Origin: Macrostomum lignano
Taxonomy: Eukaryota
Direction: 5' to 3'
Length of the DNA stretch: 40,546 nucleotides
Assembly (NCBI GenBank): GCA_002269645.1
Contig: NIVC01000904.1
Coordinates: forward strand, 1 to 40,546
Shown: positions 7,249 to 40,546 of the stretch, piece after piece
Layout: the number at the start of each line of letters is the position of its first letter
How positions within the stretch are numbered: position 1 is the stretch's first letter
Notes under the pieces: model-generated
What the model was told of the DNA's origin: nothing
Database searches by the model: none
Seen by the model: the letters and a program-made list of their open reading frames with translations, nothing else
Program-made: the position numbers and the translations under genes

Positions 7249-7278
7249 TATTTTATTTAAAATTTTCTTTTTAAATAA

Positions 7279-8244
7279 ATGACAGATCAGAAACTTAAAA
7301 AACTCTACTACAGCGACAAAGGATTCTTTGTAGGCAAAAATGCCGTTAGTAAACTCATGGAGCTGAGTAAGGAACCAAAAGCTACAGTAGAAAAATCGCT
7401 CTCTAAGCAGGCTCTCTTTCAAGTCTATTTCCCACCAGTAAAATTTACAAGACCTCACTTTAGCATCTATAAACCTAATGAAGCGCACCAAGCAGATCTT
7501 TTGTTTCTCCCCAACGACTCAGGCTACAAGTATGCTCTTACAATTACAGACGTTGCCTCCAGATATAAGGAAGCGAGACCGCTTAAGACGAAGAAGTCAG
7601 AAGCAGTTGCAGCCGCCCTCCAAGATATTTATAAAAACTCACCCCTTAGTTACCCTGAAATCTTTATGACGGACCCGGGTAAAGAATTCATGGGTGCAGT
7701 GAAATCACTTCTACATAAGCATGACACAAAAATTCGCTATGGAAGAACTGAGCTACACAGAGACCAGGCTTTTGTGGAAAGATTCAATCTAACTCTAGCC
7801 AAGAGGCTATTCACTAAGCAGACAGCTGAAGAGCTGAAACTAAAAAGTGGTCAGTACTATACCAAGTGGTCAGACCGGCTCCCCACTGTTATAGAGCAAC
7901 TGAACAATGAAGTCACACGCATGACTGGATTGAAACCATCCCATGCAATTAAACAAGACACTGTCGAACTTAAGTCATCTCATAGAACAGACACCTCGAA
8001 CTACCCTAAGCTTCCAGGAGTTGAATCACCATACATACTGACAAACTCTGAGTTTCTACGCTTTTTATATCTACCTGGAGAGCTAGAGAAGGACACCAAA
8101 AGAAGAGCTACAGATCCATACTTCAGCCTTGATGTACATAAAATAGACAGACATTTTACCTCCGACTCCGGTGACTATTACTTTTTATCTCAGGCTTTAA
8201 CCCTAAATCCCCCACGCGGTCATTCACTAGAGCTGAACTCCTAG
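7279..8244 (+). CDS. int: Retroviral-like (rve) DDE integrase
   Basis: HQADL / MTDPGKEF / FVERFNLTL catalytic triad; YKYALTITDVASRY. The C-terminal end is probably frameshifted by a few codons. Confidence 0.95.
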   Translation: MTDQKLKKLYYSDKGFFVGKNAVSKLMELSKEPKATVEKSLSKQALFQVYFPPVKFTRPHFSIYKPNEAHQADLLFLPNDSGYKYALTITDVASRYKEARPLKTKKSEAVAAALQDIYKNSPLSYPEIFMTDPGKEFMGAVKSLLHKHDTKIRYGRTELHRDQAFVERFNLTLAKRLFTKQTAEELKLKSGQYYTKWSDRLPTVIEQLNNEVTRMTGLKPSHAIKQDTVELKSSHRTDTSNYPKLPGVESPYILTNSEFLRFLYLPGELEKDTKRRATDPYFSLDVHKIDRHFTSDSGDYYFLSQALTLNPPRGHSLELNS

Positions 8245-8289
8245 TGATACCAGCTGACACGGAAATTAATTAAAATATTAAAATAAAAA

Positions 8290-8735
8290 ATGACAAAGAT
8301 TGAAACTAGAACCTCAATAAACTCAATAAAATCATTGAATCAAAGAAACCAGGTCTTATATCAATTAAAGGTGCCAAAGTAAAAGTCGATCCCGTGCAGC
8401 AAATAGTTCAGTGTAATGAGCAAAGACACAGCATCACAGATGAAAAGTCAGGAGGAATCCTACCATTAGCAGCTCTTATTCCGATCATTGCAGGCGCTGT
8501 AAGTGCCGCAGGTGGTGTAGCTGGAGGTGTAGCAACTGCTGTTAAAGCTGGTAATGATAGAGCCCACCAGCTGGAATTGCAAAAGATTGCAAGAGATAAA
8601 GGTATAACAATTAAGGCAGGAGAGGGCTGCCCGGATTTTGATGATTGTGAGCATGAAAATTCTGTAAGCAAGTCTGACATTGTCAAAGCCATCATGACAC
8701 TGCACAATGCTGGGTTTACAATAATGCGGATGTGA
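8290..8735 (+). CDS. Adenovirus pX/mu-like core protein (frameshift near 5' end)
   Basis: KSGG-ILPLAALIPIIAGAVSAAGGVAGG resembles the adenoviral pX C-terminal segment (GGILPLLIPLIAAAIG) after a GG protease site. ATG at 8290 joins ORF 8394-8735 via a frame change. Confidence 0.75.
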
Positions 8736-8859
8736 TGAGGTTTAAAACCCCACTTTATCCAGCTTCATAAACCTAACGCTACTTATAGGATGTAGAAACA
8801 GTTCAACTTTTCTATCAGGGTGGTCACCCTCAAAAATTTTTTTTATTTTAGAGAAAAAA

Positions 8860-11800: not shown

Positions 11801-12697
11801 ACAGAGGAAGCGTGGATGAAACCCTACATTGATAAGAACACCCAGTTTAGGACCAAAGCAACCAACGACTTTGACAAGAACCTCTTTAAGTTGGCCAACA
11901 ACTCTGTCTATGGCAAGACTCTTGAGAATGAGCGGAAAAGAACAAACCTGAAACTTGTTACCTCATCAGAGCCTGCTGTTATTCAGGCAAATATGTCAAA
12001 GCCAACATTCAAAGAACTCCATATCTTTAATAGCTACTTAGGTGTGATCATATTTTACAAAACCAAGGTGACGCTGCGCAAGCCGATCTATACAGGTGTC
12101 ACTGTTCTCGACGAATCAAAACGTCTGATGTACCAGTTCTTCTATGGCATGAAGCAGCAGTACAAGGATAAAATGAAACTCTTGTACACTGACACAGACA
12201 GTTTTATTATGGACATTCAAACAGAAGACATTTATCAGGACATGCTGCAGCAAAAAGATTTGTTTGACTTGTCTGAGTATGATGAATCTTGCAGGACACA
12301 GAATGGCGATCAAGTGTTTGACGCTACTAACAAGAAAGTGATTGGGAAAATGAAGGACGAGATTGCTGGTGACATAATCACTGAATTCATTGGGTTGAGA
12401 GCAAAGTCCTATTTTGTAAAATGTGAGTCGTCAGACCCAATTAAAAAATCAAAGGGAATTCCGAAACGTGTGGTTAGGAAGGAAATTAATGAAGCTGAAT
12501 ACAGAGACGCCTTGAATTGCAACAAAAAGACATCACATGAGTTCTCAAAGCTACAATCTAAAAACCATATTATTCACACAATTCAGCAAAAGAAGATTGG
12601 ACTGTCAGGTGCAGATAACAAGAGATTCATTTTTGATGACAATATTAACAGTCTACCGTTCGGGCATTGGAGATTAGGCTTAGGAGGTTGGGTTTAG
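8860..12697 (+). CDS. polB: Protein-primed family B DNA polymerase (pPolB), split by frameshifts
   Basis: vOTU-like DNCCALWAV...AHYVWIKD, C2H2-like finger, Exo I YADFE, CHIC/endoVII-like finger, LKDSYQF, DVFLLADVFE, DANNLYG, KLANNSVYGK, YTDTDS, KSKG. Pieces are ORFs 8952, 9487, 10668, 11126, 11422 and 11651. Confidence 0.95.
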
Positions 12698-12749
12698 GAG
12701 GTGGAGACTAGGTTTAGGTTTAAGAGAAAGTTTAATAAAACTCAAAAAA

Positions 12750-23012: not shown

Positions 23013-26000
23013 ATGGAAGCAATTTTAGCTCAAATCGACAACCCTGAACTTAGAGCACAATTAATAGCTCAAATCGATGCACAACGAATTGCCGATAGGG
23101 CTGAAATAGAAGCAAGAATTAGGGCAGAAAATGAGATACGTTTAGAAAGACAATTAAATGATATTAATAACCCCCAACCACAAGGACAAAATGGAGCTGA
23201 AGTAATATATATAGATATAGATATAAATACAAATTATAAAGAATATTTTAAACAAATGAAAGATAAATTAAAGACCATATTAAACAATTATACTATAAGG
23301 CCAAATAACAAACGACAGCCAATTAAGTATAAAATAGAAGTTGAAACAGAATTTAAAAAACCAAATATTCTTAATGCAAATTCAGAAATTGAAGTAATAA
23401 ATAACTTTTCACAAGAATCATATAAAACATTATTATCAATGGGAAATTACAACAATCAATTCGATCAAATAGAAGCTGAGTTTGATGAATGGATAGATAA
23501 GATGACAGAAAACGGATCTGGGTTTATATTTGTATCCTGTAATTCAGCAATAGTAAAGATTGCACCTATAGAAATTCTTAAAGGACGATCACATATGAAG
23601 CTCAAATTTAAATCACCTATGATTATAAATCCAGACAATAAAGATAATAAATGTTTATTATGGTGTTTATTAATTCATAAATATCACAATCAAGTAGAAT
23701 CACACATTAATAAAATATATAATTATAGACAATATGAGGATGAAATAATAATGAAAAACATATCATACCCAGTAGCAATAGATGATATATATAAGATTGA
23801 AAAAATGAATGGTTTAAATATTAATGTGTTTACAATTGAAGAACCAAAAGATCTAGAAGAAATTTTAACCGATCCAGAATGGTATAAGAAAACTGTTATC
23901 TTGTTAAGCCAGCAACTGATATAACAGCACCAGATCAAATCGATCTTTTGTACATGCAGCGCGAAAATGAAACACATTATATATACATAAAAGATATTAG
24001 TTCTTTTTTAAGAGAAAATAGAAATAGATATCCACTATGTAGAAATTGTTTTACATTTAAAAAGGATGAAACAGCTCTTAAAAACCACCAACGATTTTGT
24101 TTAGATCACAAATTTACTAATGCTATAATGCCAGCATCTGAAGATGCAACCCTAAAGTTCCAACAACATTATATGGCAGTTAAAAAACCAATAGTAATAT
24201 ATGCTGATTTTGAAGCAACAAATGTTCCCTTAAAAGAATCACAGACGGTATCATCTGATGATGGGGAATGCACAAAAAAATTGGCACAACAGTTTCCGAA
24301 TAGTTATTGTATATATGTACACTCTGTAGCTGATCATATATTTAAATCAAGGATGATTACTTACCACGGTAATGATGCAGCTAAGCACATGGCAGAATCA
24401 TTAGTAAATGTATTTGAATATATTCAAAATCAATATGATAAATTATCAAAAAATATTAATATGACAAATAAGGATAGAGACAATTATAAAAATGCAACAA
24501 ATTGTTTTATGTGCAAAAGACATTTAAGTAAGAATAATAAGATACGAGAACATTGTCATCTAACAGGAAATTATCGAGGGGCAGCATGTAGATCATGTAA
24601 TGCAAAAGAAGGAAAAGGATGTAAGGAAATACCAGTATTTTTTCATAATGGTTCCGGATATGATTTTCATTTCTTAGTTCGAGAATTGCTTCATTTAGGA
24701 AAGGATGAATATGAAATAAATATATTACCTAAAACATCAGAAAATTACATATCAATAACATATGGTAAGAAATACTCCCATCTAGTTTTTCTAGATTCCT
24801 TGAGATTCTTATCAACATCTTTAGCAAATGTTGTTTCATCATTAGTTCCAAAACCATGGGATTTAGAAATAGTAAAGAAAAACTTTCCAATACTATTGAA
24901 TCGTTTCAAAAAGAAAAACTATCCGAGGAAGAACTAATGCTATTAACTCGTAAGGGCATCTATCCATATGAATATGTAACATCTGAAGACGTATTTTTTC
25001 ATACCGAATTACCCCCAATTGAAAAGTTTTATTCAACATTATCACAAACAAACATAAGTGAATCGGATTATGAACACGCTCAAAAAGTATGGAAATACTT
25101 TAATTGTAAAACATTTAAAGATTATCATAATCTATATCTTAAAGCAGATGTTCTCCTATTAGCTGATGCATTTGAAAACTTTAGGAATCATACATATGAG
25201 AATTTTAAAATTGATCCCGCATATTGTTTCAGTGCACCGGGATTAACATGGGCTTGTGGTTTGAAACATACAGATGTTAAGATTGATTTACTAACTGATC
25301 ATGATATGTTGTTAATGATTGAGAGAGGAATTCGCGGCGGATTCTCGGGTGTACTAGGAGATAGATATACTAAAGTAAATAATAAATATCTACCAAATTA
25401 TAATAAAAAAGAAAAATCATCATATGTATTATATCTAGATGCAAACAATTTATACGGTGGTTGTATGAAACAAAAATTACCAATAGCTGATTTCCAATGG
25501 GAAGATGACCCCGATTATTACAAAAATATTCCCGAAGGAAGGGGCTGTATCGTAGAAGTGGATTTGCAATATACTCGGGAAGCAAAAGCAAAAACATATA
25601 AATATCCTTTAGCTCCAGAGCATTGTTCAGTTAATGAAGATGATTTATCACAAACACAAAAAGATTATCTTAAAGTAGATAATGCAAAACATCTAGCAAC
25701 AAAAAAATTAATATTAAATTTACATGATAAGAAAAACTATGTAGTGCATTATAAGCTTCTACAATTTTATGAAAAGCAGGGATTAAAAGTGTCTAAAGTA
25801 CATCGAACAATATCGTTTATTGAGGAAGATTGGTTAGCTAAATATATTGACTTTAATTCAAATCAGAGACAGATGTCAAAAACAAATTTTGAGAAAGATT
25901 ATTGGAAATTAATGAATAATGCTTTTTATGGAAAAACGGTTGAAAATATTAGAGATAGAACCCAATTCCATTTAGAAAAGGATATTGATAAAGCAAAGAA

Positions 26001-26992
26001 ATATTTCTCAAAACCTAACTTTAAAGACTTTATAAAATTTGATGATAACTTTATGGGTATTCATATGAGAAATAAAACAACAAAATTTCTTAAACCAATA
26101 TTTATTGGAATGGTTGTTTTAGATTATGCAAAGCTGTAATGTATGAATACTATTATGATGTTATAAATAAAACATGGCCAGATAACTATCCAATATATGC
26201 AGACACCGACAGTTTGGTATTTAAGGTTGAAACAGATGATCGGGCAAAGCCGCGAACCAAAGGTTCGATGTCTATAAAGATATGGAAAAAATTAAGGATA
26301 CATTGGATACCTCCGACTATCCGGATAACCATCCTTTAAAATCAGATCAAAATAAAAAAGTTGTACTTAAAATGAAAGATGAATTAAATAGCAAAATCAT
26401 AACCGAGTTTATAGCAATAAGATCAAAATGCTATGCATTTAAGGTTTTAGGACAGGAGGGAGAGGTAAAAAAAATAAAAGGGGTATCAAGAGCAGCAGTA
26501 AAAAAGATAACATTTGATGATTATAAAAACGTACTTTTAGATTACCTTAATACAATTGAAAATTATCATGCTCCACAATATCGATTAAATTCAGATAAGC
26601 ATCAGATGTTTGTCATCGAGACAGATAAAAAAACATTAAGTCCATTTGATGATAAAAGATATTTAGATGATAAAATTAAAACATATCCATATGGTTTAAA
26701 AGAAGAGATAAAAAATATGATAAAAGATAAAAAACAAAAAGAAGATATAATAAGTAAATATAATGAATACAAAGCGGCAATAAATAATTATTATTACGAT
26801 TGTGATTGTGAATCCGAATGTGATTGTGAATATAATACATTTCTAGAATATGAAAAAGATATAGATAATTATTATTCAACATTTCCAAAAGAACTTAAAA
26901 AATTAAATAAGGAAAAAGTCTTGAATAACTGGAAGAGATTAACAGAAAAATTACTTATCGGGCGTAAAAAACTAAAGCATGTAATTGTTTAA
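23013..26992 (+). CDS. polB: Protein-primed family B DNA polymerase (pPolB), split by frameshifts
   Basis: vOTU-like DNKCLLWC...THYIYIKD, YADFE, CFMC..REHCHLTGNYRGAACRSCN, FHNGSGYDFHF, FLDSLRF, YLDANNLYG, KLMNNAFYGKT, YADTDS, KIKG, DDKRY. Confidence 0.96.
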
Positions 26993-27314
26993 GCATAATA
27001 TCATTTCAATTTCATATATATTGAGCCAATTTCCTCGCAGTCGTCAGGGTAACTTAAACAATCCTTTATTTTTTTCCTAAGTTTTTTTATTTTTCTAACC
27101 AATCTATCTATTTCAATTTCAATTACTATTTCAGCATAAACAATTCAGTTTAAAAAACGTTTTCTTTTATCTATTCATATCGGATGGGAAACATATCGTC
27201 CCCATACTCATGATATTTCTGAGATATAATTATATTTATTTTTTTATTAATATCATTAAGTTCACGCTCTTTAGTGATAAGGATTTTTATCGTATCCATT
27301 TTCTTATAAAAAAT

Positions 27315-27647
27315 TTAGTCTTCGTCGTCATCCTCCCAAACAGCCGCCAATTTTACAGTCCTATCACTCTTTTTATTATTTGTTTGTTTTAGTTTAAATT
27401 GCAATCCACCCTCGTTGCAGTATTTCATAACAAACGCTTTAGGTTTATTAATAACTAAAACAGGAAAATTTTTAACATCATCTCCGCTTAGACATAAAAT
27501 TTTTTGCCCATCTAATTGTAAAAATATTGATTGAAGCCCAATAAATTTAACCTGTCTCAAACATATAATATTATATTCTTTATTCTCCAACATATTGGGT
27601 GTGAGATAATTAATCACATTAGAATCGGTTTTGAACCAGCTCTCCAT
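27315..27647 (-). CDS. Small beta-rich protein with acidic tail (possible OB-fold ssDNA-binding protein)
   Basis: ATG at 27647 in an AAAAATG context; alternating beta-strand pattern; C-terminus WEDDDED. Confidence 0.5.
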   Translation of the reverse strand: MESWFKTDSNVINYLTPNMLENKEYNIICLRQVKFIGLQSIFLQLDGQKILCLSGDDVKNFPVLVINKPKAFVMKYCNEGGLQFKLKQTNNKKSDRTVKLAAVWEDDDED

Positions 27648-27672
27648 TTTTAATCTAAAAAAATAAAAAAAA

Positions 27673-27963
27673 ATGAAAGACATTTATGTTTGTAATAAAT
27701 GTAATGTGACTATGCACAGAGGGCAAACAGCAAACGGAGATATATATCATATGTGTTATTCATGTTCTAAAATATATCAATTTGAAAAAACAAAAAAGAT
27801 TGAAAACTCATATTACTATTTTAAAAACACAATTTTAAGAAATCTTACAAGAGACATTTCTGATCCAATTTTAATTCCCGGAAATAATGTTTATTTATAT
27901 AATAACTTTTTCCATTTAAATAAAGGAAAGGGATTAAGTTCGAAAGACTCGAAAGGATTTTAA
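27673..27963 (+). CDS. Small zinc-ribbon-like protein
   Basis: CNKC-x16-CYSC. Confidence 0.5.
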   Translation: MKDIYVCNKCNVTMHRGQTANGDIYHMCYSCSKIYQFEKTKKIENSYYYFKNTILRNLTRDISDPILIPGNNVYLYNNFFHLNKGKGLSSKDSKGF

Positions 27964-28150
27964 TTTTAGTTGGATATTATTTCAATTTTCTTATTCGAGA
28001 GAATACAAAGTTTATAAGGATAGGTAACATACCTAACGAAATGTTATTGAAAAAGTCATTGGAATTTTTATGTATTGATAAAAAATTTAAACCTAGGATC
28101 AGAAGAGAGTTACCACTTTGGGAAGAATATATAACATATGCATTAAAAAA

Positions 28151-28805
28151 CTAAACAACCTGAAGTTCTACAGCACTTCCTGACCGCGGGCTTTGTGCCC
28201 CAGTAGCAATAGTTTCAGGTTCGTAAATGCCTAATGTTTCTATCGGTGGAGCTTTGGGTTTATCGAGTCTCAACTCTTTTAATTCCATATCGGTAAAAGT
28301 TTCAACATCTAAAATTCTATTTCTATCTTTTAAATATTTTTCATATAATTCAACCGCGGTTGATAATTCATGAATCGTTATCTCTCCGTCATCCAATATT
28401 TTTTGCACATATAAATATAATTGATTTTTATATTGCTTGCAACATCTCTTAAGATTTATATTTTTCCTTTCTTTTTTTAAGATATAATTTAATTGCTAAA
28501 AGTATTGATAAGTTCCTGATCAATTCAAAACCTGATATTGAGCCAATTGAAATACCTAAAAATAATTGAGATAAATTAAGAGTTGGAATAGATTGTAAAA
28601 TACCTAAAACGATTACACATAACATTGATAAGCTTCCAAATCCAATATTGAAAAAGTCCATATTTCTTATATGGTTTGAAACTCTTCTTACTTTTTTAGC
28701 ATATAAATCATAATCATAGTTAATACGATCAACATTACTTAACATCTGACCTTTACGTTGGTTGAACCGGTCGCGTTCCCATTTATCTGCTTCAGATACC
28801 GACAT
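28151..28805 (-). CDS. Conserved Polinton membrane protein (GasderminX-like candidate), frameshifted
   Basis: Coiled coil, two hydrophobic helices, then ILDDGEITIHELSTAVELYEKY; homologous to 13153-13883. Confidence 0.7.
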
Positions 28806-28817
28806 TCTCGTCTATTT

Positions 28818-29117
28818 TTAATAGCACCAAAATGAATTCCCCACGCTCTTTGGGATTTGTCCCGAGCTCAATAGGTATTGTATTGGAGTTATTCTTTCTT
28901 TTTTCTCCCATTTAAATCCTATTTTCCAAAACTCTTGAAGTATAATATGATTTTTTAATAACTTAATTAATTCTTGAAGCTTCTTATTATCCTGAACATT
29001 TACAGTACTAAATAAAAATTTGGTATGAGATTTGAATGTTTTTATATTTGATTCTTGTTTAGGAATAGGAATAATAACATTATTTTGCCGCATCGATGGA
29101 GTTCTACTAAAAGCCAT
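28818..29117 (-). CDS. Hypothetical basic protein (about 99 aa)
   Basis: ATG at 29117 (AAAATG) within ORF 28818-29276. Confidence 0.45.
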   Translation of the reverse strand: MAFSRTPSMRQNNVIIPIPKQESNIKTFKSHTKFLFSTVNVQDNKKLQELIKLLKNHIILQEFWKIGFKWEKKERITPIQYLLSSGQIPKSVGNSFWCY

Positions 29118-29148
29118 TTTATATAGAAATATTTTATATATAAATATT

Positions 29149-31193
29149 TTATATTTGAGTAGGAGGTTTTTCCAAATAAGCAGTAGAGGGAAAAACATAA
29201 CCAAACGACGTACTACCACATACAACTGCACCACGAATAAAATGTGCAGCATCCGCTCCACCAGTTCGAGCACCAAAACCCATAAGGGTTCCAGATTTAT
29301 CTAAAGTTCCCCAAGTTCCACTATCATATGTGAAAACGTTCTGTCCAATGAGGGTAAAAGAATCACCAGCAACATTGTATGACTGTAATCGGTACCAAAC
29401 CCTTTGATTTAAAATATTAACTTCAAATAAATGCCAATCGCCGTTATCAATATTAGCATAGGCTACAGTTTGATCCGCATCACTACTAACATCGTTACGA
29501 ACCGTAGATCCGTCTGATTTTTTATTACTCCAAACAACTCCAAACCTATCAGTCCACTCACTAGCAAACACTATCAGCCCGGCGTCGGTTGATAATCCAG
29601 TTCCAAATTCCGATGTTGGACGTTCGTGACATATGCATAAAACCAAACCGCATCTGCACCATCTCCTGTAGAATTAGCAACTCGGAAAAAGAAAGACGCA
29701 GATATATTTTGAAAATGTGTGAAATTGAATTGTAAAGCACCACTTACTCCAGAAGTTTCACGAGTAATTCTAGCGCCGTTTTGATAATCGATATAAGAAG
29801 CATCGCAATTAAAGAACCGACTGGATATATATCTCCGGCGGTTGTTGGATTTTGATATCCAGACCAATTGCAAATTACTGGTTCGAACAAGGCCGCATCA
29901 ATAGCAGGTATTCCATCCAATTTATTTTTATCGCTTCCAGACATTCTACCATTTGATGTTGGAGTAGCTAGCTGATCTACGTACGCTCGCGGAACTGCAG
30001 AAAGTATTTGAGTTGGCCAATTAAGATCTTGAATTTCAACACGGTGTTCAAATAATTGTATTTGACGAACCTCGATAGGTTGTGTACCGGTACCACCAGT
30101 TGGGAAGAATACGCTATAATATTTCCAAAAATTAGTCGTTAAATTAGATAGAGCAAATGATGTTGCTTGAACTGGTGATCCCGACGTAGTTAATGTCGTC
30201 CATGAATCGGTAGCAACATTTTTTGCGCGAACCGACCACCCCGAGGGTATCTCAATTGTTTCACTGCCTGTAATTCTTAATTCAAATATTCTTCTATTAT
30301 AACCTAAAAATTCAAATTGAATTTCCATATTGGTTGTGGTTCCGGTATTTGGTGACCATTGTGTCGCAAGGCTTCCATCTCCAACTCGAAAAGCTGTGTT
30401 GCCATTTTCAGATGCTGTAAGAACAACATCAGGATTTGAAGTATTTGATGTAAGCGGCGTGGTAAAAATATCGGCGTCGGTTGCATTAGCTCGCTCGTTT
30501 ACTTGGCCTAGAGTTATCGAGTCTGCGTTCTCTGTTCCAAATAATAAATTTGTTAATTTAAAATTATTCATATTAATATTACCACTACGAGTGGCAACTT
30601 GATTATCGACATAGTTCTTATCAACCACTGAATCACTAGTTGTAATTGAAACATTTATAATTCGGTTGTTGCTCATATCTAGGTTTCCGGTTGCGGTGGT
30701 TTGAACATAACGTGAATCAGAATCAGTTCGAGAATAAGAATCAGTTACATCTCTTTTTAAATTTAATCCATTATCAACTTCGGTTTTGGTATAAGAATCG
30801 GCTACGTTCCGTTTCAAATTTAATGAATTATCAACTTCGGTTTTGGTATAAGAATCGGCTGTATTGCGTTTTAAATTTAATGAATTATCAACTTCGTTTT
30901 GGTATAAGAATCGGCTGTATTGCGTTTTAAATTTAATGAATTATCAACTTCGGTTTTGGTATAGGAATCGGCTACGTTCCGTTTCAGATTTAGTGAATCA
31001 TCTATTTGAGTTTTGGTATAGGAATCTGCAACATTTCTTTTTAAATTTAGTTTAGTATCAACTTCACTTTTTTTATAACCTTCATCTCATTAATATATCG
31101 ATTATCTCCAAATGTAACACTTATTCCACCAGATGTGCCACCACCACCACTACTTGTTGTTCCGTTCCATGAGGGTGTTCCAGAAAATAACAT
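29149..31193 (-). CDS. Modular fibre/receptor-binding protein (frameshifted)
   Basis: 19-aa repeats YTKTEVDNSLNLKRNxADS; LDMSNNRIINV/KNYVD shaft motifs; discoidin/F5-8-like domain; ATPTSNGRMSGSDKNKLDGI motif; C-terminal ConA/L-lectin-like domain (GDGADAVWF, DNGDWHLFEV). Confidence 0.75.
30725..31075 (-). repeat. 57-bp coding tandem repeat (about 6 copies) in the fibre gene
   Basis: ATACCAAAACCGAAGTTGATAATTCATTAAATTTAAAACG.. repeated on the minus strand. Confidence 0.9.
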
Positions 31194-31203
31194 TTTTTAC
31201 TGT

Positions 31204-31641
31204 CTATTTTATAGAGTCTAAAATATTCTTAAATACTTCGGGGGTTTCCTTCGAGTTATTAATTTTATATAAAAAATACAACGCCGCTTGCCCGCAATAA
31301 CTTTTATCAAAGGTTTGAAATTGTTCGTGATGATCTCCACATAAACGATTTTTAGTATGATTAAATTTATCTTTTATTTCCTGTAACGGAGGAAGCGCGT
31401 ATGAATCAAAAAAATAAACAAGTTTTGGTTTTGAATAAACTGCTGACCAATGAACACCATTTTCTTTTGTTGTTTCAATATTAACAATGAAAGATCCATA
31501 TTGTGGTAAGTCTTTGATCTCATCTCGCATAACACATCTGAATGGTTTTATTTTTAACTGCCTCGCCCAATTTGTTAATTCGATATTGCTTGTTGTGTCC
31601 GTTCCATATCTTTGTTTAAAATCATCCCACGTCATGGTCAT
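31204..31641 (-). CDS. Adenain-like cysteine protease, intact
   Basis: GVHWSAV, FFDSYA, FQTFDKSYCG: His-Asp-Gln-Cys all present. Confidence 0.95.
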   Translation of the reverse strand: MTMTWDDFKQRYGTDTTSNIELTNWARQLKIKPFRCVMRDEIKDLPQYGSFIVNIETTKENGVHWSAVYSKPKLVYFFDSYALPPLQEIKDKFNHTKNRLCGDHHEQFQTFDKSYCGQAALYFLYKINNSKETPEVFKNILDSIK

Positions 31642-31642
31642 T

Positions 31643-31822
31643 TTATGTTCCTGAAAAACTCTTGGTTTTAGTTAGTTTCGTAGGTGTGGGTTTTAACAAT
31701 TCCTTTCTTATTTTATCAGCTTGTAACTGCCTTAATTTTGCTAGTTCTAGTTCGTAATTATCTTCAGCTTTTTTAACTTTTTCTGATTGTTTTTTTATTA
31801 AATTATTATTATTATTACCCAT
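31643..31822 (-). CDS. Small basic coiled-coil protein (59 aa, MGNNNNN...)
   Basis: Read by eye; AAAAATG context; fills the gap between penton and protease exactly. Confidence 0.5.
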   Translation of the reverse strand: MGNNNNNLIKKQSEKVKKAEDNYELELAKLRQLQADKIRKELLKPTPTKLTKTKSFSGT

Positions 31823-31832
31823 TTTTACAGTA

Positions 31833-32618
31833 CTAAACCTGTTTTATACGTAAAATTATTGTTATTGACTGCCCACCAAAACTTATTAATCTATCGCTTT
31901 CATCTACAATCCTAATATAAATTGATTGAACATTATATTGATTTAATGGGTAATATATTGGGGTTTGAGGTGATACAATCATTTTCTCTCCAATTGGAAC
32001 AGCAAGAAATGGGATTGAATAAATAATTCCACGTTGAACCAAAACTCCGTTATCGTCTGTTATATAACCACCGTTTGAAATGTCGGTTGTTATATTAATT
32101 GTATTTACTCCACCCTCTATATTTCCAACTGTATCACCGGTGCTTGATGTGGTAACTATTCGGGAATTAAATCCAAGTATGGTTCTGAGTGAATTTGCAA
32201 TTGTGAAATCAACCTGATATCCGGATCCTAGTGATAGTGTGAATCTGCCAGACGGTAAATCAACACCTATAACAATTGCTCCTGCTACCCAATCACCATT
32301 AGTTGTTAATTCTCCTTCTATATAAGCATTCAAATCAGTATAGCTATACGCTCCTGGGTTAACGCTAAATGTTGTCCAATTGGCTCCGGAATCTTTAGAA
32401 TATCTAAATTGATTATTTGTTGCATTAATTAATTGAGGCATGTTGAAAACCGAAAATAGTATTAAACCTATTTGATAACTTAGGCTTTGATCAAGTTGTA
32501 ATGGATCGCGCAATTGAATCCGTTGCTCGCTGGTTGTCATTATAAACTGTAATGTTGTACTAAATTTTGAATTAGTTCGATCTACCAATTGTTTTATAGT
32601 ATTTAAATTTGTAGTCAT
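31833..32618 (-). CDS. Minor capsid protein (penton, single jelly-roll)
   Basis: PGAYSYTDLN, SLRTILGF, INITTDI, IIYSIP, PIYYPL, IYIRIVDE..RLISFGG..ITIILRI. Confidence 0.92.
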   Translation of the reverse strand: MTTNLNTIKQLVDRTNSKFSTTLQFIMTTSEQRIQLRDPLQLDQSLSYQIGLILFSVFNMPQLINATNNQFRYSKDSGANWTTFSVNPGAYSYTDLNAYIEGELTTNGDWVAGAIVIGVDLPSGRFTLSLGSGYQVDFTIANSLRTILGFNSRIVTTSSTGDTVGNIEGGVNTINITTDISNGGYITDDNGVLVQRGIIYSIPFLAVPIGEKMIVSPQTPIYYPLNQYNVQSIYIRIVDESDRLISFGGQSITIILRIKQV

Positions 32619-33448
32619 TTTTATAGTGGGAAATTAATCGTACGAAGGTACGCGACCCTATGCGATCATTCTTCTTCCTCATATCTTCTTTTATCAAATT
32701 TTTAAATTCTATTTTCCTTTCTAACCTCGGATTGATATAAATATGTTTGTATTGGCTATCATCCCAAATTTTTTTACACATACTTTTAAATGGTTTTGCA
32801 TCCAATCCGGGATTAAATCTAGCGTGAATATTTTGTAATCATATTATCTAAATCAAACATTACACAACAGCTTGCATTCTTTTTTATAATCGATTCTAAT
32901 TCTCTAAAGGATTGAGTAAGATAAAAAGCTCCAATTCCATCTCCTCTACCACTAACAAAAATTTCCTTTTGCAATTCTTGATCACCGTCATTAATACAAT
33001 CATCAAAAATAATTAGTGTTTTATCATGTTTTGGAATTTGATCATAGGCTAATCGGGTTGATACTCTAACAGTTGGGGCTCGATCGGACGAAGTCCGCGA
33101 CCCTTCGGGGCGATCGGTGATGTTTTCTGGCTGTTGTGCCATTGTTTTACATAAATCCTCAATGTCTGCTAGATTAAATCGCGGTTCGTCATCATCCTCA
33201 TATTGCTCATATGCTCTTAACATTCTAAACAAGACATCTTTTTTTAATTTGTTTTTTAATCCATGTTTAAGAAATTCATAATATTTTATTCTAGGTTTAT
33301 TAGTATAAATTATTAAATTATTATAGTCTAACATTCCATCTGTGTTTAAATCGTAAACAAAGTGTGTTTTTCCTTTACCTGATCCTCCGATTACTAAACA
33401 AAGAAAAGGATCATTTGGAAATATCTTATCGTGTTTTGCCTTTACCAT
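32572..33448 (-). CDS. A32/FtsK-like packaging ATPase (frameshift at about 32830)
   Basis: Walker A IGGSGKGKT, Walker B LIIFDD, SGRGDGIGAFYLTQS. Confidence 0.92.
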
Positions 33449-33499
33449 TTTTAAAGAAATAATTTAAATAGGCGCGACGGTCGGAGACCTGCACTCATT

Positions 33500-34972
33500 T
33501 TACAATGGTGCGTCCCGAACAATCGTGCCATCAGCTTTAGCAATTGACATATATTCCTCTAGAAACAATACGTGGGCGTCAAGTGCCTGATTACCGGTTT
33601 TATTAATCTCTAACATATAATTAAGTCCAATATTGGCTACGTTTTCTTTCTGTGCCGTTAGATCATAAACAACCACTGGATGAATGTTTAGAAACTCTGT
33701 GGGTGTGTACTGAGGGACGGCATACGCTTCATTTTTAGCATAATCTTGATAATATTTTATAAAATCATTAACATTATTATTTGCTATATTTAAATTTAGG
33801 GGGTCTTTAACCGGATAATATTGATCATCAACCTGCAGGCGGATATTCTGAACATTAAACTCGTTAATAGCTGCAGCCGCATTGTCTGTTGCGGTGGCTG
33901 CTTGTTCTGCTATGGCACCGGATTGAAGCCAATATAAATCCCCATTTGCTCTTTTACTCCTTCTATTTGTTATCTTAAACCAAACAAAAATATATCTCAC
34001 CCGACGTTTTGATGTCAGTATTTGCCACTGGAATGAATCCTGGTTATTATTAATGGTTCGCATAAAATGTCGACGATTCAAATAAAATATTTCCTGATCA
34101 TGCGTTAACTGATTATCGATGTGTTTTAAAAGTGGGGCTGTTACCTCAATAGTTGGTACGACTAATTGAATTGAATCTATACGAACTGCTATATCGGTTG
34201 AAATTGAGGTTCCATAAAGTATCCTAGGCTGATATCCACCAGATATTTGCAACTGTATCCCAAATTTTAATCCTTTCCATACCCGATTTGGTGAGAAAAA
34301 CCCAAATAGTGGAAAGATTGAAAAGTCCTGCTCATATGCTGTTGCTGTGGTTAAAACCGCGACTGGGAATTTATTCTGACGATCTATAAAACCAGTATTA
34401 ATATCTTTTGTATTAGTCATAGTGGTTACAACTGGAACTATGTTTGTATTAAGGTAAACAATTAGCGCTGCAGTATCTGCACCGGCTGCGTTTTGTACAT
34501 TAGGGAAAACTACTGCTTGACCGTTACCTTTATCCGGCATCCACCCAACATTATCACCAACTTGTTTTGATAAATAAGTATAATTTAAATGTTTCAAAAC
34601 TCCATTAATCTCTGCGGGGTTTGATGATGTCTCAACCTCAGCACCATTAACAGTTAGTTGAGCTTGGGAAAAACATTTATAAAACCAATCATTTTCTATT
34701 ATTATTCCGGATCGATCTGCGATATCTCCGGCTGCAAGAGCAGTTCCATCATTTCTAGTATACAACCATCTAACGCGGAAAAACGCATTTTTCATATCCA
34801 ATATAGTGTTGGTTGCGCCGATGTCAAAAGTTACCGTTCCAGTAGTAAAGTTATTTGAATTATCACTTGTTGGTAGGGTATAATTTAAATCTCTTGCTCT
34901 GACCTCATTAATATACTGTCGGTGCTTTTTGAAATGAAATTTATCACTCCACATAGTTTTTGTTTCAGCCAT
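33500..34972 (-). CDS. Double jelly-roll major capsid protein, intact (490 aa)
   Basis: ENDWFYKCFSQAQLTVNGAEVE, FPLFGFF, IQLVVPTIE, RYIFVWF, NIRLQVDDQYYP, HPVVVYDLT. Confidence 0.92.
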   Translation of the reverse strand: MAETKTMWSDKFHFKKHRQYINEVRARDLNYTLPTSDNSNNFTTGTVTFDIGATNTILDMKNAFFRVRWLYTRNDGTALAAGDIADRSGIIIENDWFYKCFSQAQLTVNGAEVETSSNPAEINGVLKHLNYTYLSKQVGDNVGWMPDKGNGQAVVFPNVQNAAGADTAALIVYLNTNIVPVVTTMTNTKDINTGFIDRQNKFPVAVLTTATAYEQDFSIFPLFGFFSPNRVWKGLKFGIQLQISGGYQPRILYGTSISTDIAVRIDSIQLVVPTIEVTAPLLKHIDNQLTHDQEIFYLNRRHFMRTINNNQDSFQWQILTSKRRVRYIFVWFKITNRRSKRANGDLYWLQSGAIAEQAATATDNAAAAINEFNVQNIRLQVDDQYYPVKDPLNLNIANNNVNDFIKYYQDYAKNEAYAVPQYTPTEFLNIHPVVVYDLTAQKENVANIGLNYMLEINKTGNQALDAHVLFLEEYMSIAKADGTIVRDAPL

Positions 34973-35006
34973 TTTTTTAAGTTAAAAAAGTTTTTTATGT
35001 TAAAAA

Positions 35007-35674
35007 ATGAGTCAATTTATGGACGTTGATGGAGAGTTAGCGATTTATAAAGAGAAGCAAAGATATTCTGATTTTGTTAGAAATTTACAAAAAAGAAAGT
35101 TAGGAATACAATTAGCTGGCGAAAGATTTGCTGCTCCTTTTGTTAATCCTATTACTGGGAAAATTAGTGAACTAGAAAAAACAGATAAAGATCTTCTGGA
35201 AAAAATTGCTAAAAATACTGAGCCAAAAGAGGATGAAATTTTGGATGAGCCGCCTGCTTATGATGTTGATCAAGCACAATTGAGAGTTTAGAGATTAGGG
35301 CTGAAGAGATTAGGGGTGGAGTTGATCGGAACAATTTCCAAGAGTACCACCTAGTATTGCTGTACAGATTTAGGTAATAATAATTATCGAATTGGTAACG
35401 TTGATAAAGATCGAAATGAACTATATACAGAATTGGGTGGAGCATATAATATTATTATGAACCCTAGGGTAAAATTTAACCCGATTTATATACTAGGATG
35501 AATTAGTAAGTGCTAAATTTTTTATGATGAGTTAGGAGGAGCTGTTAAAAATACCAGCTTGTATAAATGGATTGTTAATTCTATAAATAACAAACCAGCT
35601 GTTGGTGATGGATTTAAAACCCGCGAAAACTTGTTTTAGCTGCTGCGAAAGCTGCTGGACATACAGGTGTTTAA
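35007..35674 (+). CDS. Conserved Polinton protein (PZ-like), several frameshifts
   Basis: N-terminal RFAAPFVNPITGK; C-terminal GDGF..LAAAKAAGHTGV parallels element 1 GKG..LLGAAKTG. Head-to-head with MCP. Confidence 0.55.
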
Positions 35675-35697
35675 TTGTTAAATTTATTTTTTATAAA

Positions 35698-36201
35698 ATG
35701 GATAATACGATAAAAGATTGTCTTTGTAAACCTATTTATGATAAGGCTGGTTCTGACAGAATACTAAATAAGATATTTCAAGATGAATTAATAATTGCAA
35801 ACCGTATTAAAACAATTCAAATGAGACTTGGATATCTTTATGAATTATTAGCTATTAAACATTTTGGTTTTGAAAAAGTAAATAAAATTGATTTAATTCA
35901 TACAGAAAGAAAAGTTGCGTTAGAGTTAAAATCTTCTGATAACACAGATAATTCATCAAGTCGATTTAGAAATATTCAAAAGTTATTAGAATTTAAATAT
36001 GTTAATCCCGAATTTGATTTATATTATATTTGCATTAATAATACTACTAAAAACCCCGTACAAAAAGTATTTGATAATGGAGTTACCTTGTTAACTGGGG
36101 AATTTGCTTTAAATTTTTTATATGGTGATCAATATTTAGAAATTATTAAATTGATAGAAACATGTTTTTTAAACATTAAAAATGAACCAACTTGTGTTTG
36201 A
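35698..36201 (+). CDS. PD-(D/E)xK endonuclease, Eco47II/giant-virus restriction-endonuclease-like (167 aa)
   Basis: QMRLGYLYE..IDL-x8-LELKSSDNTDNSSS..NIQKL motif; intact ORF, ATG at 35698; the stop overlaps the PLA2 start. Confidence 0.75.
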   Translation: MDNTIKDCLCKPIYDKAGSDRILNKIFQDELIIANRIKTIQMRLGYLYELLAIKHFGFEKVNKIDLIHTERKVALELKSSDNTDNSSSRFRNIQKLLEFKYVNPEFDLYYICINNTTKNPVQKVFDNGVTLLTGEFALNFLYGDQYLEIIKLIETCFLNIKNEPTCV

Positions 36202-36307
36202 TGGAGGATTGTTAGATGTTCAAAAAGGATTAACAAGCTTACCACCAATCTTTACTACTGGGAGGTATACAAATGAATTACACATCCCATCTTACAACTT
36301 CGCGGGT
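36182..36307 (+). CDS. Exon 1 of PLA2-integrase gene (42 codons, ends LHIPSYNFAG)
   Basis: Open frame from ATG 36182 to GGT 36307 encoding the first half of the parvoviral PLA2 Ca-loop; DGG-LL protease-type site. Confidence 0.85.
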
Positions 36308-36632
36308 GGAGCTCGAGCTGTGCCCGAGTGGTAGATGCAAAGCTACTGCTAGTCACTATTAGTGGCAACACCAGCCGCTCACTCAATCCCCTAAAGCTTC
36401 AAGTACCACTTTGTTTTCGAAAGATTACAAAGGAACAGAGGTAACTCCTCTTCCCAACGGTAACAAGCTTGAAGATAAATATATGGGCAAGAGTGAATCG
36501 AAAACCTAACCTCATATGACTTGAGTATGGTTGAGATGCAACGACTGTACGCTGGTGGGCTTGAAGGACTTAGTCAATCCTTATGATAGCTTAAGACACA
36601 GTCTACTCCTTTGTGAAAGCAAAGGTATAAAG
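36308..36632 (+). ncRNA. Group I self-splicing intron (IC1-like, ORF-less, 325 nt)
   Basis: P1 exon CGGGU/IGS GCCCG (36322-26) with U.G at the 5' splice site; P3 CACCAGC 36369-75/GCTGGTG 36551-57; P4 TCACTC 36379-84/GAGTGA 36491-96; P5a CTTCAAG/CTTGAAG with GGTAACAAG A-rich bulge; P5b GAAA and P5c GTAA loops; J6/7 GCA; P7 A(C)GACTGT 36541-48/ACAGTCT 36598-604; J8/7 TAAGAC; P9 CCTTTGT-GAAA-GCAAAGG; terminal G at 36632 or 36633. Confidence 0.92.
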
Positions 36633-37783
36633 GCCGGGTTGACTCGACTCGATCTCCGATTAAATCCTGACAATACTCCAAAATCTGATTCAATTCCAAT
36701 AAATGGGATTGATTGGTTAGCATACTATCACGACTTAGCATATAGAGATGCTGACAAGAACCCGCCCGAGGAAGCATTAAGATTAAAACATGAAGCCGAT
36801 CAAAAAATGATTCAAGGATTAGATAACTTGCAGGGATTATCGGTAGGGCAAAGATTAACTAGGTGGATGGTTAAAAAGATTTTGCAGTCTAAAGTTAAAT
36901 TTGGTTTGGGAATTAATTATAATCAACATGGAAATAATTGTGTCGAGTGTTTATTATTAAGTGGTGGTGGGTTAAGTTCTGATGAGGCAAAGATTCTTCA
37001 TAAAGAATATCGAAAACCTAAATTTTATAGAAAAATCATGAACTTCAAAAAGAATGAAATTTGGTATGCTGATTTAATGTCGATGCCGAACGAAAGAGGA
37101 TATAAATATATCTTAACCATATTAGATGGTTTTACTCGATACGCGTGGGCTGTTCCTTTAAAATCCAAAAAGGGAGAGGAGGTTGCTGCTGCTTTTAGAA
37201 GTCTTGGAGAAAAAAGCGAAAGATTGTGTGTTGATGAAGGAAAAGAATTTTACAATCCTCATATGTATAAATTGTATCATTTTGAAAAAGGAAAAGAAAG
37301 GAAAAAAGACGCGAATGGGGAGTATATTAATAAAATTTATTCTATTTATGGAGAGAGTAAAAACGCATTAATAGAAAGATTTAATCGAACTTTAGGTAAG
37401 AAATTATGGTTTCAGTTTAGTCTTAATGGTAACCAAAAGTGGGTAAAAATATTACCAGACGTAGTGAAAGATTATAACAATTCATATCATTCAGCTATAA
37501 AGATGACTCCTCAACAAGCTTATAACAATCCTGAAAAGTTAAAGTTACTTTTGGAAAATTTGAAAAAAATAAAAAGAAATCTTTTAAGGTTGGTGATTCT
37601 GTTTATATCTATAAATGGAAAGATAAGTTTGAAAAAGGAAGAAAAGGATATTGGAAGATAAGTGAGAAATTTACTATCAGTAAAGTTTTAAATACCAATC
37701 CTACAACCTATATAATTGCTGATAAGGACGGTGAAGAAATATTGGGTTCTTTTTATGAGAACCAGATAATGTCTGCGAACTAA
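36633..37783 (+). CDS. int: Exon 2 of PLA2-integrase fusion (PLA2 catalytic half plus rve integrase; frameshift at about 37570)
   Basis: INGIDWLAYYHDLAY...KVKFGLG (PLA2), LSGGG linker, then WYADL / CVDEGKEF / LIERFNRTL (DDE). C-terminal KVGDSV..FEKG..GSFYENQI lies in another frame. Confidence 0.92.
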
Positions 37784-37793
37784 GTTCAAACAG

Positions 37794-37961
37794 TTACTTA
37801 AGACAACATGGTAGTAAATTTTTTATTACAAACAAAAACAATATTATTACTATAATTGTTACTAATATTATTATTGACATTTGTTCAACTGTTATCAAAC
37901 TTAAATTTTCATTAAGTTCATTAATTGGAACATTTCCGATGTAGGAATAGTTTACCTTCAT
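37794..37961 (-). CDS. Small single-pass membrane protein (55 aa)
   Basis: IIILVTIIVIILFLFVI followed by KNLLPCCLK; AAAAAAATG context. Confidence 0.5.
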   Translation of the reverse strand: MKVNYSYIGNVPINELNENLSLITVEQMSIIILVTIIVIILFLFVIKNLLPCCLK

Positions 37962-38034
37962 TTTTTTATATATATTTTTCACAATAAATGTCGTTTCTGT
38001 TATAGAATAATAGTTCATTTTTTAAATATTTTTT

Positions 38035-38349
38035 TCACATAAAAATTTCACTTTCATTCTCTGAATCACTGGTTTCATATGAACTATTTGTTGATTCGGA
38101 ATCTGTTGATCTAACCTCCCAATCATCCGAATTTAAATAATCTCCAAGTTGAAATATTAACTCACCCTCTTGTTCTAAATCATACATCTCATCTAGCTCT
38201 AATGGATAAAGTTTTAGGTCGTGCTTGTCGTCATATTTTAAATAAACTTCATCAATTATTCCATTCAAAATATGTTGTTTTATTATCTCTGCATTTTTAG
38301 CAACAGTCTCAAAAGTATCACTAACAGAAAAGGTGTAAACTCGGGTCAT
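38035..38349 (-). CDS. Small acidic hypothetical protein (104 aa)
   Basis: First ORF inside the right TIR; AAAAATG context; Ser/Glu-rich tail. Confidence 0.55.
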   Translation of the reverse strand: MTRVYTFSVSDTFETVAKNAEIIKQHILNGIIDEVYLKYDDKHDLKLYPLELDEMYDLEQEGELIFQLGDYLNSDDWEVRSTDSESTNSSYETSDSENESEIFM

Positions 38350-38366
38350 TTTTAGTAACAGAAAAA

Positions 38367-38674
38367 GACCCTTCGCGCCTGCGGCGCGGGCAAGGGGTTA
38401 TAGAGTAGTAGTATAGAAAAAGACGCTTCTAGACCAGAGCACTTTTTTAATTACCGTTTTTAAGGTCTTAAGAGGGGGGACGCGAGGGGAGTATTGGGGA
38501 GTGTTTGGAAGTGTTGGGATTGATTTTTATTGTTAGGGGTGATTATGGGTGATTGGATGTGTTAAGGGTGATTAGATGTGTTTTTTTATTTACCCCCCGT
38601 GTCCCCCCTCTAGACCCTTAAAACGGTAATTAAAAAAGTGCTCTGGGTCTAGAAGCGTCTTTTTCTATACTACT
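38367..38674 (-). repeat. Right TIR of element 2
   Basis: Ends ...TTTTTCTATACTACT; reverse complement of 20939-21246. Confidence 0.95.
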
Positions 38675-39325: not shown

Positions 39326-40066
39326 GCGAGTAGCCAGCGTGGAGCAGGACTGGCTAACCGGTTTTCAGCTAAGCCAGACAGCGGCCTGCCAGTGCCAGCA
39401 GGAGGAGGACGCCCTGCTAGCCGGTCACCTGCGCCTGCTGGCAGCGGCCTGGCAGGCGGATCCGCCCGACCCTTCGGCCGGCGAGCGGCTGCTGCCTCAG
39501 CTGATTGGCGCCTTCCTGATGCCGGCCGACTCGCACTGCCGTGCCGGGCCACTGTCCCGGCCAGCCATCTACGACCTGCTATTGCAGCTGTGCGCCAGCA
39601 ATTGCCGATGCCTTCGAGCGCTTAGCTTGGCCCTGCGGCCGCTGCACCGAATCCACGGCTGGGAGGTGCCGGCGCCGCCCGAACCGCGCGGTCAATGCGG
39701 TTTAGTTGGCCTAAAAAATGGCGGTGCCACCTGCTATATGAATTCGGTGCTGCAACAGCTGTTTATGGTGCCAGGCCTGGCAGCTGCTGTACTGTCAACG
39801 CCGGATCCTACTGCGACTGCTGGCGACGAGCAGAACACTGCGACGGCGGCAACGACTGTCGCTACCGCCGCCTCTGGCAGCTCCGTTGACGGCGGAGGCA
39901 GCAGCGAGTCGGGCGACGGTGCCTCTACCAGCTGCAGCTGGTGCTGGCGCACCTGTTGGAGCTGCAGCAGCAGTACTACGTGCCAGATCAATTGTGGGCC
40001 AATTTCTCACTGTGGGGCGAGAAAGTCAATCCGAGAGAGCAGCAGGACGCGTTCGCGTTCTTTCAG
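39326..40066 (+). CDS. Host internal exon of a USP9X/USP24 (FAF-family) deubiquitinase; one frameshift at about 39900
   Basis: Cys box GLVGLKNGGATCYMNSVLQQLFM and QYYVPDQLW..FSLWGEKVNPREQQDAFAFF; acceptor CTCAG at 39325, donor CAG/GT at 40066. Confidence 0.88.
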
Positions 40067-40105
40067 GTATATCCTTGCGAATCGCCTTTAAATATGCTGC
40101 ACCTA

Positions 40106-40546
40106 CATAGCCCCACAAGAATCGCCTCCATAGCCCCACAAGAATTGCCTCCATAGCCCTACAGAATCGCCTCCATAGCCCCACAAGAATCGCCTCCATA
40201 GCCCCACAAGAATCGCCTCCATAGCCCCACAAGAATCGCCTCCATAGCCCCACAAGAATCGCCTCCATAGCCCCACAAGAATCGCCCTCCATAGCCCCAC
40301 AAGAATCGCCTCCATAGCCCCACAAGAATCGCCTCCATAGCCCCACAAGAATCGCCTCCATAGCCCCACAAGAATCACCTCCATAGCCCACAAGAATCGC
40401 CCTCCATAGCCCACAAGAATCGCCTCCATAGCCCCACAAGAATCGCCTCCATAGCCCCACAAGAATCGCCTCCATAGCCCACAAGAATGCCCCATAGCCC
40501 CACAAGAATCGCCTCCATAGCCCCACAAGAATCGCCTCCATAGCCC
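40106..40546. repeat. 23-bp minisatellite (ATAGCCCCACAAGAATCGCCTCC)n
   Basis: Directly visible; runs off the window. Confidence 0.97.

Follow-up and report, generated by a model that had tools for sequence, protein, structure and literature searches.

Group I introns at the PLA2 loop of animal-integrated Polintons, with a candidate homing nuclease and GGNCC avoidance

Described group I introns and homing nucleases

Among the closest described systems to the locus reported here are the group I introns that polinton-like viruses carry in the nuclear genomes of protists, where these viruses are integrated (PMC12220804). These introns match the Rfam model RF00028, are 309-376 nt long and, as at our locus, interrupt a protein gene of a small, integrating dsDNA virus. 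The hosts named are Rhodomonas, Paulinella and Desmodesmus, the intron interrupts a short ORF that precedes the capsid gene, and the passages of that paper drawn on here annotate no nuclease in the intron. Our locus differs in its animal host, in the gene affected, which encodes a PLA2-integrase, in the presence of three intron types and in an associated nuclease. Protein-gene group I introns also occur in other eukaryotic DNA viruses, namely chloroviruses (an IB intron in TFIIS; PMC7019647) and Bodo saltans virus, whose introns are spliced according to RT-PCR and whose intron endonucleases have been proposed to harm competitors (PMC5871332). The hosts there are algal or flagellate, the Bodo saltans virus nucleases are of the HNH or GIY-YIG type, and the relevant passages of the two papers do not mention avoidance of sites. 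Nuclear group I introns have been described as confined to the rDNA of microbial eukaryotes (PMC3679873, PMC10964413), and those of animals as found only in basal lineages and some sharks (PMC10964413). The nuclear rDNA introns, IC1 and IE, share with the introns described here the P2/P2.1 and P5abc architecture and a nuclease gene in a peripheral loop; unlike them, the intron under study lies in a viral protein gene (PMC3679873, PMC10964413). An earlier reading of this DNA, made from its letters (the sequence-only reading), had surveyed the known group I introns and omitted the polinton-like viruses of protist nuclear genomes (PMC12220804).

Homing endonucleases fall into six families, including that of the PD-(D/E)xK enzyme I-Ssp6803I, and recognise long targets, often over 20 bp (PMC3943268). 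They resemble the present system in that a small nuclease is encoded in or beside a group I intron that splits the target, but the nuclease described here resembles Eco47II and EcoO109I and seems to use five bases together with genome-wide avoidance. Collaborative homing by free-standing endonucleases (PMC11296320) is alike in that a nuclease gene adjoins the intron; it concerns phages, whereas inside and outside layouts coexist here in one animal genome. As to the interrupted gene, a parvovirus-type PLA2 is known from animal Polintons as the PLA2X of adintoviruses (PMC8502044), in a text whose single 'intron' passage is unrelated; here an intron splits the PLA2, which, as in many homologues, is fused to an integrase. 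In the literature searched (including 10.1101/2023.08.22.554363), group I introns in animal Polintons and a homing nuclease of this kind are unreported; the PMC11835236 database and S11/S12 of PMC12220804 could hold animal entries. Within the extent of these sources, a group I intron in an animal nuclear protein gene appears to be new. The nuclease inside the intron of a sister family, with its link to GGNCC, is also new here and is the most novel part; a homing strategy is a plausible interpretation of it.

The interrupted PLA2-integrase gene and its intron

The window, that is, the whole stretch of 40,546 nucleotides analysed, carries a Polinton/Maverick that we call element B (Table 1). Its inverted repeats (20944-21030 and 38581-38667) are 98% identical; no target-site duplication was seen at its ends, where the flanks differ and the right one is a simple repeat. 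The element contains pPolB in pieces, a protease, minor and major capsid genes, a packaging ATPase and the PLA2-integrase gene; Pox_A32 and rve profiles match in it, and the capsid, protease and polymerase labels, which have no Pfam match, were assigned from the order of the genes, from motifs and from a tblastn comparison with a sister family. The host is an animal, with a 764-Mb genome that yields 159 nuclear-receptor zf-C4 and 140 innexin matches, host genes also being duplicated in the assembly so that match counts are not copy numbers, and contigs C87, C441 and C2121 hold both a copy of the window's intron type and zf-C4 genes. Transcription of the PLA2-integrase gene is presumably by Pol II. 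PF08398 and rve are both matched by natural, uninterrupted homologues of the gene (PF08398 in P0010 and P0012). The frame of exon 2 stops earlier in the window than in most sister copies (378 vs 419 codons, stop to stop).

Table 1. Coordinates of element B, the split PLA2-integrase gene and the elements of its intron in the window
Feature	Position	Strand	Remarks
Polinton/Maverick element B	20939..38674	.	17.7 kb (17,739 bp); terminal inverted repeats start AGTAGT
Eco47II-like PD-(D/E)XK nuclease gene	35698..36201	+	free-standing; overlaps start of exon 1
PLA2-integrase exon 1	36182..36307	+	ends on Gly codon of PLA2 loop; final U forms the 5' splice site
Group I intron, type I	36308..36633	+	326 nt to G36633, 325 nt if G36632; ORF-free
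P1	36303..36326	+	exon end 36303-36307 with guide 36322-36326, 5/5; U36307.G36322 at splice site
P10 (potential)	P1 loop 36308-36321	+	can pair with exon 2
P2 + P2.1	36327..36366	+	P2 7/7 by coordinate; P2.1 from constrained fold
P3	36369-75/36551-57	+	7/7 paired
P4	36379-84/36491-96	+	6/6 paired
P5 + P5abc	P5abc 36397-36474	+	constrained fold; A-rich bulge 36462-36466, GAAA loop on P5b
P6/P6a/P6b	36497-36537	+	constrained fold
P7	36541, 36543-47/36599-36604	+	6/6; bulged C36542; guanosine-site pair G36543-C36603
P8	between P7 strands	+	constrained fold
P9.0	36606-07/36631-32	+	followed by tail and terminal G36633 (segment 36605..36633)
P9	36608-14/36619-25	+	7/7; GAAA loop
PLA2-integrase exon 2	36634..37661	+	rest of PLA2 and rve integrase; rve E 1.4e-7

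Judged by its sequence, the insert at 36308-36633 belongs to the group I introns. When 36150-36800 was scanned by E-value, RF00028 matched over its whole model length at 36335-36625 (33.6 bits, E 8.1e-7), a score below the Rfam gathering cut-off of 50 bits for this family, as is that of the window's intron type; the runner-up Rfam match reached E 0.5, and the whole window at the Rfam gathering score gave zero matches. The intron region folds more stably than expected (z = -3.68), none of 100 shuffles being equally stable. Several hallmarks of the group were found, namely a P3-P7 pseudoknot core, a P4-P6 domain, P8, P9, the U.G pair of P1 and the G-C pair that follows the bulge in P7, and the P2/P2.1 and the P5abc with A-rich bulge that mark IC1 are also present. 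When P1, P3, P4, P6 and P9 were forced, the fold reached -97.1 kcal/mol vs -103.3 unconstrained, the P7 pseudoknot being unscored, and recovered P2.1, P5, P5abc, P6a/b and P8. The core helices are intact in 23/23 parsed type I copies. The junction is not an assembly slip, since the contigs of four public runs agree and 24/24 type I copies share it. The sequence-only reading had proposed just such an intron in the PLA2-integrase gene of a Polinton in an animal nuclear genome, inserted in a conserved motif, with the loop split after 36307, and had recommended an RF00028 covariance-model search. The match, though under the gathering cut-off, and the paired core helices bear this out; the insertion separates the Gly codon of the PLA2 loop from the Pro codon that follows, and its 5' boundary is fixed by three intronless sister copies (L067-L069). 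The complete core with GNRA loops that it described holds for P1-P9, for the A-rich bulge of P5abc and for the GAAA loops of P5b and P9, but not for P5c, whose loop is non-GNRA.

Three intron types interrupt the PLA2 loop between Gly and Pro. Type I, to which the window belongs, has 25 core matches at 24 places in the genome. Type II has a different core and scores 59.8-64.6 bits with RF00028 in 3/9 loci scanned; at E <= 0.01, RF00028 failed to match three loci of type I and three of type II. The 28 RF00028 matches that were scored in the genome above the cut-off (72.7-91 bits) are without exception type III, and every one of them lies at the PLA2 site. Types II and III carry core motifs that we take to be those of IC1, and the window core is ~50-57% identical to both. 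A search of the genome for intron-plus and intron-minus sister copies, which had also been advised, found both at the same site. Intronless alleles occur in 3/20 hand-picked regions (L067-L069), and a sister family gave 20 further pattern matches, one of which was fetched and confirmed (L297). An earlier empty-site pattern was discarded: its 7 matches equalled the 7 of the control, chance level apart from C3967. Beyond this genome, the same site is occupied in 5/84 related viral and metagenome loci, on 4 distinct contigs, as judged by P1, P7 and P9 pairing; L213 and L229, the two of these five loci scanned, gave no Rfam match. An exact motif scan of the window core in viral contigs returned 4 matches, all in unrelated coding DNA, and protein scans of viral contigs with the exon 2 or nuclease alignment found zero relatives.

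The introns have changed in ways that preserve their pairing. P7 exists in four parsed sequence variants, all paired 6/6 with the G-C pair kept, and a fifth was read by eye in L229. In P1, at a codon position where the change is silent, type I has a G-C pair and types II and III have A-U. The comparison displays a full group I core, the exact site, intron-plus and intron-minus alleles and compensatory changes. Types I and II have up to 38/40 nt in common in P2/P2.1 (three type II copies) and 65-68/80 in P5abc, while the cores are about half identical; peripheral domains have therefore been exchanged recently. One type I copy, L025, has an insertion of ~0.8 kb in its core. Another variation concerns the terminal base: A replaces G as the last base in 18/30 type II copies, whose P9.0 is intact. 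A terminal A has a precedent in the Coxiella intron Cbu.L1917. The intron is listed under that name in PMC4990558, in the passage drawn on here.

Where does the type I intron end? The sequence-only reading was right that a splice at G36632 is in frame and one at G36633 is not; its choice of G36632 as the terminal base is doubtful because P9.0, the tail length and related introns favour G36633. The latter base closes an 8-nt tail after P9, as in types II and III and in the giant-virus intron L165. Types II and III have their terminal base eight nt past P9 and continue in frame with the Pro codon, and P9.0 at G36633 shares its geometry with L213 and L276. The 3' end of L165 is almost identical to that of the window, with the P9.0 pair reversed, and its eighth base after P9 fits what is presumably an RNA-polymerase motif. 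P9.0 also shows compensatory changes, and G36633 is thus the homologue of the terminal G. The first codons of exon 2 differ in length from those of intronless, type II and type III copies; as this is so in all 24 type I copies, a splice at G36633 is out of frame and meets an immediate stop, and the structural 3' site would give a truncated product. A splice at G36632 is in frame but yields three residues where 107/107 parsable homologues have two (40/147 were unparsed), and every in-frame choice for type I changes this fixed spacing. That type I gives an in-frame product after all, whether through G36632 or because the 5' cut moves by one base, is a reading that we consider somewhat less likely than not. 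A long pairing between the P1 loop and 36645-36657 (-14.6 kcal/mol) would fit an in-frame G36641 but is no more than suggestive, being matched by 842/10,368 synonymous codings and 199/5,000 shuffles.

The alternative, to which we grant slightly less than an even chance, is that type I is a real but unproductive lineage, splicing at G36633 into an early stop and spreading with PLA2-integrase supplied by intronless copies or by those of the other two types, or with an integrase started at ATG 36807. P9.0 and the tail length, the two-residue spacing fixed in homologues and the many potential helpers (150 scored exon-2 matches) speak for it. It sits less well with the state of the exons, since exon 1 is open in 24/24 type I copies and exon 2, over its first 95 codons, in 21/24, with pN/pS among type I haplotypes of 0.36 and 0.06, respectively; nor does it account readily for the stronger pairing of the 8-bp P10 that begins at 36633 (-9.8 kcal/mol, vs -7.2 from 36634) or for the type-specific changes directly past the junction, which are silent. 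In type II, pN/pS is 0.16 for exon 1 and 0.11 for exon 2; copies recombine, so the low type I values may be imported from other types. Given purifying selection on both exons, we infer that splicing takes place. Assembled contigs of four runs (three presumed RNA, one unlabelled) contain no exon joints; the test is insensitive, as the unlabelled run also lacks a joint though intronless copies exist in the genome.

The Eco47II-like nuclease and GGNCC avoidance

The sequence-only reading identified the intron and overlooked the neighbouring nuclease and its link to GGNCC. PF09553 was found in 10/10 aligned members of the nuclease family, the window copy scoring E 3.9e-5 and 23.8 bits against a cut-off of 25.9, and the Atlas comparison with the Eco47II-like family gave 0.94 with 176 shared features. 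The structural model has a pLDDT of 89; in the Foldseek search DdmD ranks first, with EcoO109I (TM 0.61-0.63) and AvaII among the top rows, and a further structure comparison placed EcoO109I first at a middling Z of 7.7. The nuclease had zero matches in phages or solved-structure sequences. In type III the same nuclease gene lies inside the P2.1 loop of the intron in 25/28 loci, and 8/157 nuclease homologues from other samples continue into a translation of the intron core. In most type I and II copies the position upstream of exon 1 is taken by an HNH-like gene; in L213 it is taken by a GIY-YIG-like ORF, whose motif was read by eye. Beside the empty site the nuclease was absent in 4/4 intronless copies examined; in family B an HNH-like gene stands upstream in 3/3 intronless copies, but also in most intron-plus copies, and the link between empty sites and absence of the nuclease is weak in this family. 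A methyltransferase search had zero matches among the element B ORFs scanned (23, less two short antisense ones). The window nuclease is a candidate for a homing or a competition endonuclease.

An Eco47II homologue has been assigned the site GGNCC (PMC10305163, in the passage drawn on here). Every Gly-Pro codon pair spells GGNCC, so the PLA2 loop forces one such site, which the intron splits; the empty site is indeed GGNCC in L067-L069 and L297. Elsewhere in element B the motif is missing: dinucleotide composition predicts 20.9 occurrences and there are 0, which ranks lowest among 1,280 gapped patterns. Once the encoded proteins and their codon usage are allowed for, 4.2 would be expected. Related GG..CC patterns are scarce too (7-11 vs 20.9), which brings a fair expectation nearer 10. 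A distant family bearing type III (capsid 24% identical) has 0 in 10 kb vs 10.0 expected, and 0 vs 11.3, the two loci concerned, L300 and L299, counting as one observation because they are 98% identical over 6.2 kb, with ~3.8 kb of L300 outside the shared stretch. Element A, a nuclease-free Polinton in the same window with an uninterrupted PLA2 loop, has 15 vs 17.8 expected, and host DNA has 5 vs 6.7. A second GGNCC is present towards the left end of the intronless L297. Intron-plus metagenome loci, which have no Eco47II-like nuclease, show 2 vs 6.0 expected, an unclear depletion. Avoidance of all GGNCC suggests a short recognition site rather than a long homing target.

A model for intron spread and its alternatives

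Based on these observations, we propose a model in which ribozyme, nuclease and site avoidance act together. The ribozyme would excise itself from the viral pre-mRNA, an exogenous G held at P7 attacking after U36307 and the exons joining after the terminal G. The Eco47II-like nuclease, whose gene lies within the intron in type III and stands alone in the window, would cut GGNCC. The viruses would have purged this sequence except where Gly-Pro forces one copy, and the intron would split the copy that remains, shielding its carrier from its own nuclease. Intronless relatives would be cut and then either repaired from an intron-bearing copy, that is, converted by homing, or lost in co-infection; homing and competition are not mutually exclusive. 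That a mobile group I intron family invaded the Gly-Pro codons of the PLA2 loop in animal-integrated Polintons, the window holding one of three types, we consider probable when the whole explanation is judged jointly. The part concerning the nuclease, that it cuts GGNCC, that the sites were purged, that the intron masks the Gly-Pro site and that intronless relatives are cut and converted or outcompeted, is somewhat less secure, though we lean towards it. Opinion is evenly poised on the furthest extension, in which a former restriction enzyme, now a homing nuclease, mobilises the introns, reads GGNCC only and owes its specificity to the purged sites, in a pool that includes core-swapped chimeras and a common, still-splicing terminal-A variant.

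Could the nuclease serve another end? It might cut GGNCC as a weapon against host DNA or against rival viruses such as element A, the intron being kept to hide the Gly-Pro site and moved by HNH-like or GIY-YIG-like nucleases or by reverse splicing. A five-base cutter would strike host DNA widely, where GGNCC is near expectation, the HNH-like gene upstream of exon 1 in most type I and II copies and the GIY-YIG-like ORF of L213 would provide the movers, and competition by intron endonucleases has been proposed for a giant virus in PMC5871332. The position of the nuclease inside the intron, in type III and in other samples, is nevertheless the classic homing layout, and intron-plus and intron-minus copies are 98% identical elsewhere; we regard the weapon as unlikely, if far from negligible. 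The sequence-only reading had the ribozyme control expression, and nothing was found in support of a regulatory role. A switch for the PLA2-integrase could operate through alternative P9.0 and P10 pairings that toggle the 3' sites, but coexisting intronless alleles and three unrelated cores at one site fit selfish spread better and a regulatory element was not found, which leaves this reading quite improbable. Less probable still is a decayed ribozyme that is removed by the spliceosome or never removed. A GT at 36306-07 and AGs at 36623-24 and 36631-32 would be available to the spliceosome, and an unspliced contig covers both junctions in run X5 (presumed RNA). The GT combined with the AG at 36631-32 is out of frame and the donor is weak, the in-frame AG lies within the P9 stem and has no pyrimidine tract, and the intactness of the core helices in all parsed type I copies argues against decay. 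That the elements derive from a non-animal contaminant, food or symbiont, is hardly credible: close relatives of the intron do occur in giant-virus contigs, but copies lie on contigs of 0.2-1.5 Mb with nuclear receptors or innexins (C87, C441, C2121, C23, C56, C292), type III copies start at the same terminal repeat, and the left-flank DNA of L043 matches 0/27 other type III loci.

What would the spread of selfish introns at this codon pair imply? The copies offer a natural, multi-copy setting to test whether group I ribozymes function in animal nuclear mRNA, and the variants with a terminal A or a swapped core provide natural material for probing how the 3' splice site is chosen. Annotation based on ORFs takes such intron-split genes for broken ones. 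If our reading of the nuclease is true, it would represent a new homing strategy, in which a short site is combined with genome-wide avoidance, and would signal nuclease conflict among animal DNA viruses.

Nuclease slot and element ends

The slot upstream of exon 1 of the PLA2-integrase gene is filled by interchangeable nuclease genes, which are Eco47II-like, HNH-like or GIY-YIG-like depending on the copy. In the second Polinton of the window, counts of GGNCC, the inferred target of the Eco47II-like nuclease, are normal, and no Eco47II-like nuclease was found in this element. Elements carrying the type III intron begin with a palindrome of approximately 100 bp at the terminal repeat (358-456 of locus L043); at their left end they carry the integrase gene, oriented inward.

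Coordinates of features in the window and in fetched loci (L)
Feature	Location	Basis
Second Polinton, unrelated to element B	window about 5400-18600	
PLA2 gene of second Polinton, separate, intronless	window 6778-7248	
Integrase gene of second Polinton	window 7279-8244	
Endonuclease VII-like domain, inside polymerase region	window 23954-24934	PF02945, E 2.9e-7
Host ubiquitin hydrolase exon and tandem repeat, end of window	window 39519-40091 and 40026-40546	exon: PF00443
HNH-like gene, slot upstream of exon 1	L036:919-1485; most copies of types I and II, at the equivalent position	weak PHROG matches
GIY-YIG-like gene, slot upstream of exon 1	L213:1723-2061 (related locus outside this genome)	motif by eye
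Type II introns	L031-L035, L038, L070-L084	
Short hairpin-like element, variable presence	L036, L039-L051, L076, L078, L031:1440-1510	

Terminal base of the type II introns

A terminal A replaces the usual G in 18 of the 30 type II intron copies. These copies span several silent exon-2 haplotypes, and their introns combine an intact P9.0 with an unusual P7.

Insertions and chimeric structure

The core of one type I intron (L025, G000:C249:319738-320564) contains an insertion of approximately 0.8 kb. A short hairpin-like element, which is possibly a small mobile insertion, is present or absent depending on the copy; its positions are P5abc, P4-P5, P6 and the beginning of exon 1. When window positions 36327-36474 are compared with the intron copies at L024, L033 and L070, the peripheral domains are near-identical across intron types, whereas the cores are only about half identical. 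By this comparison, intron types that share a near-identical periphery around differing cores are chimeric ribozymes.
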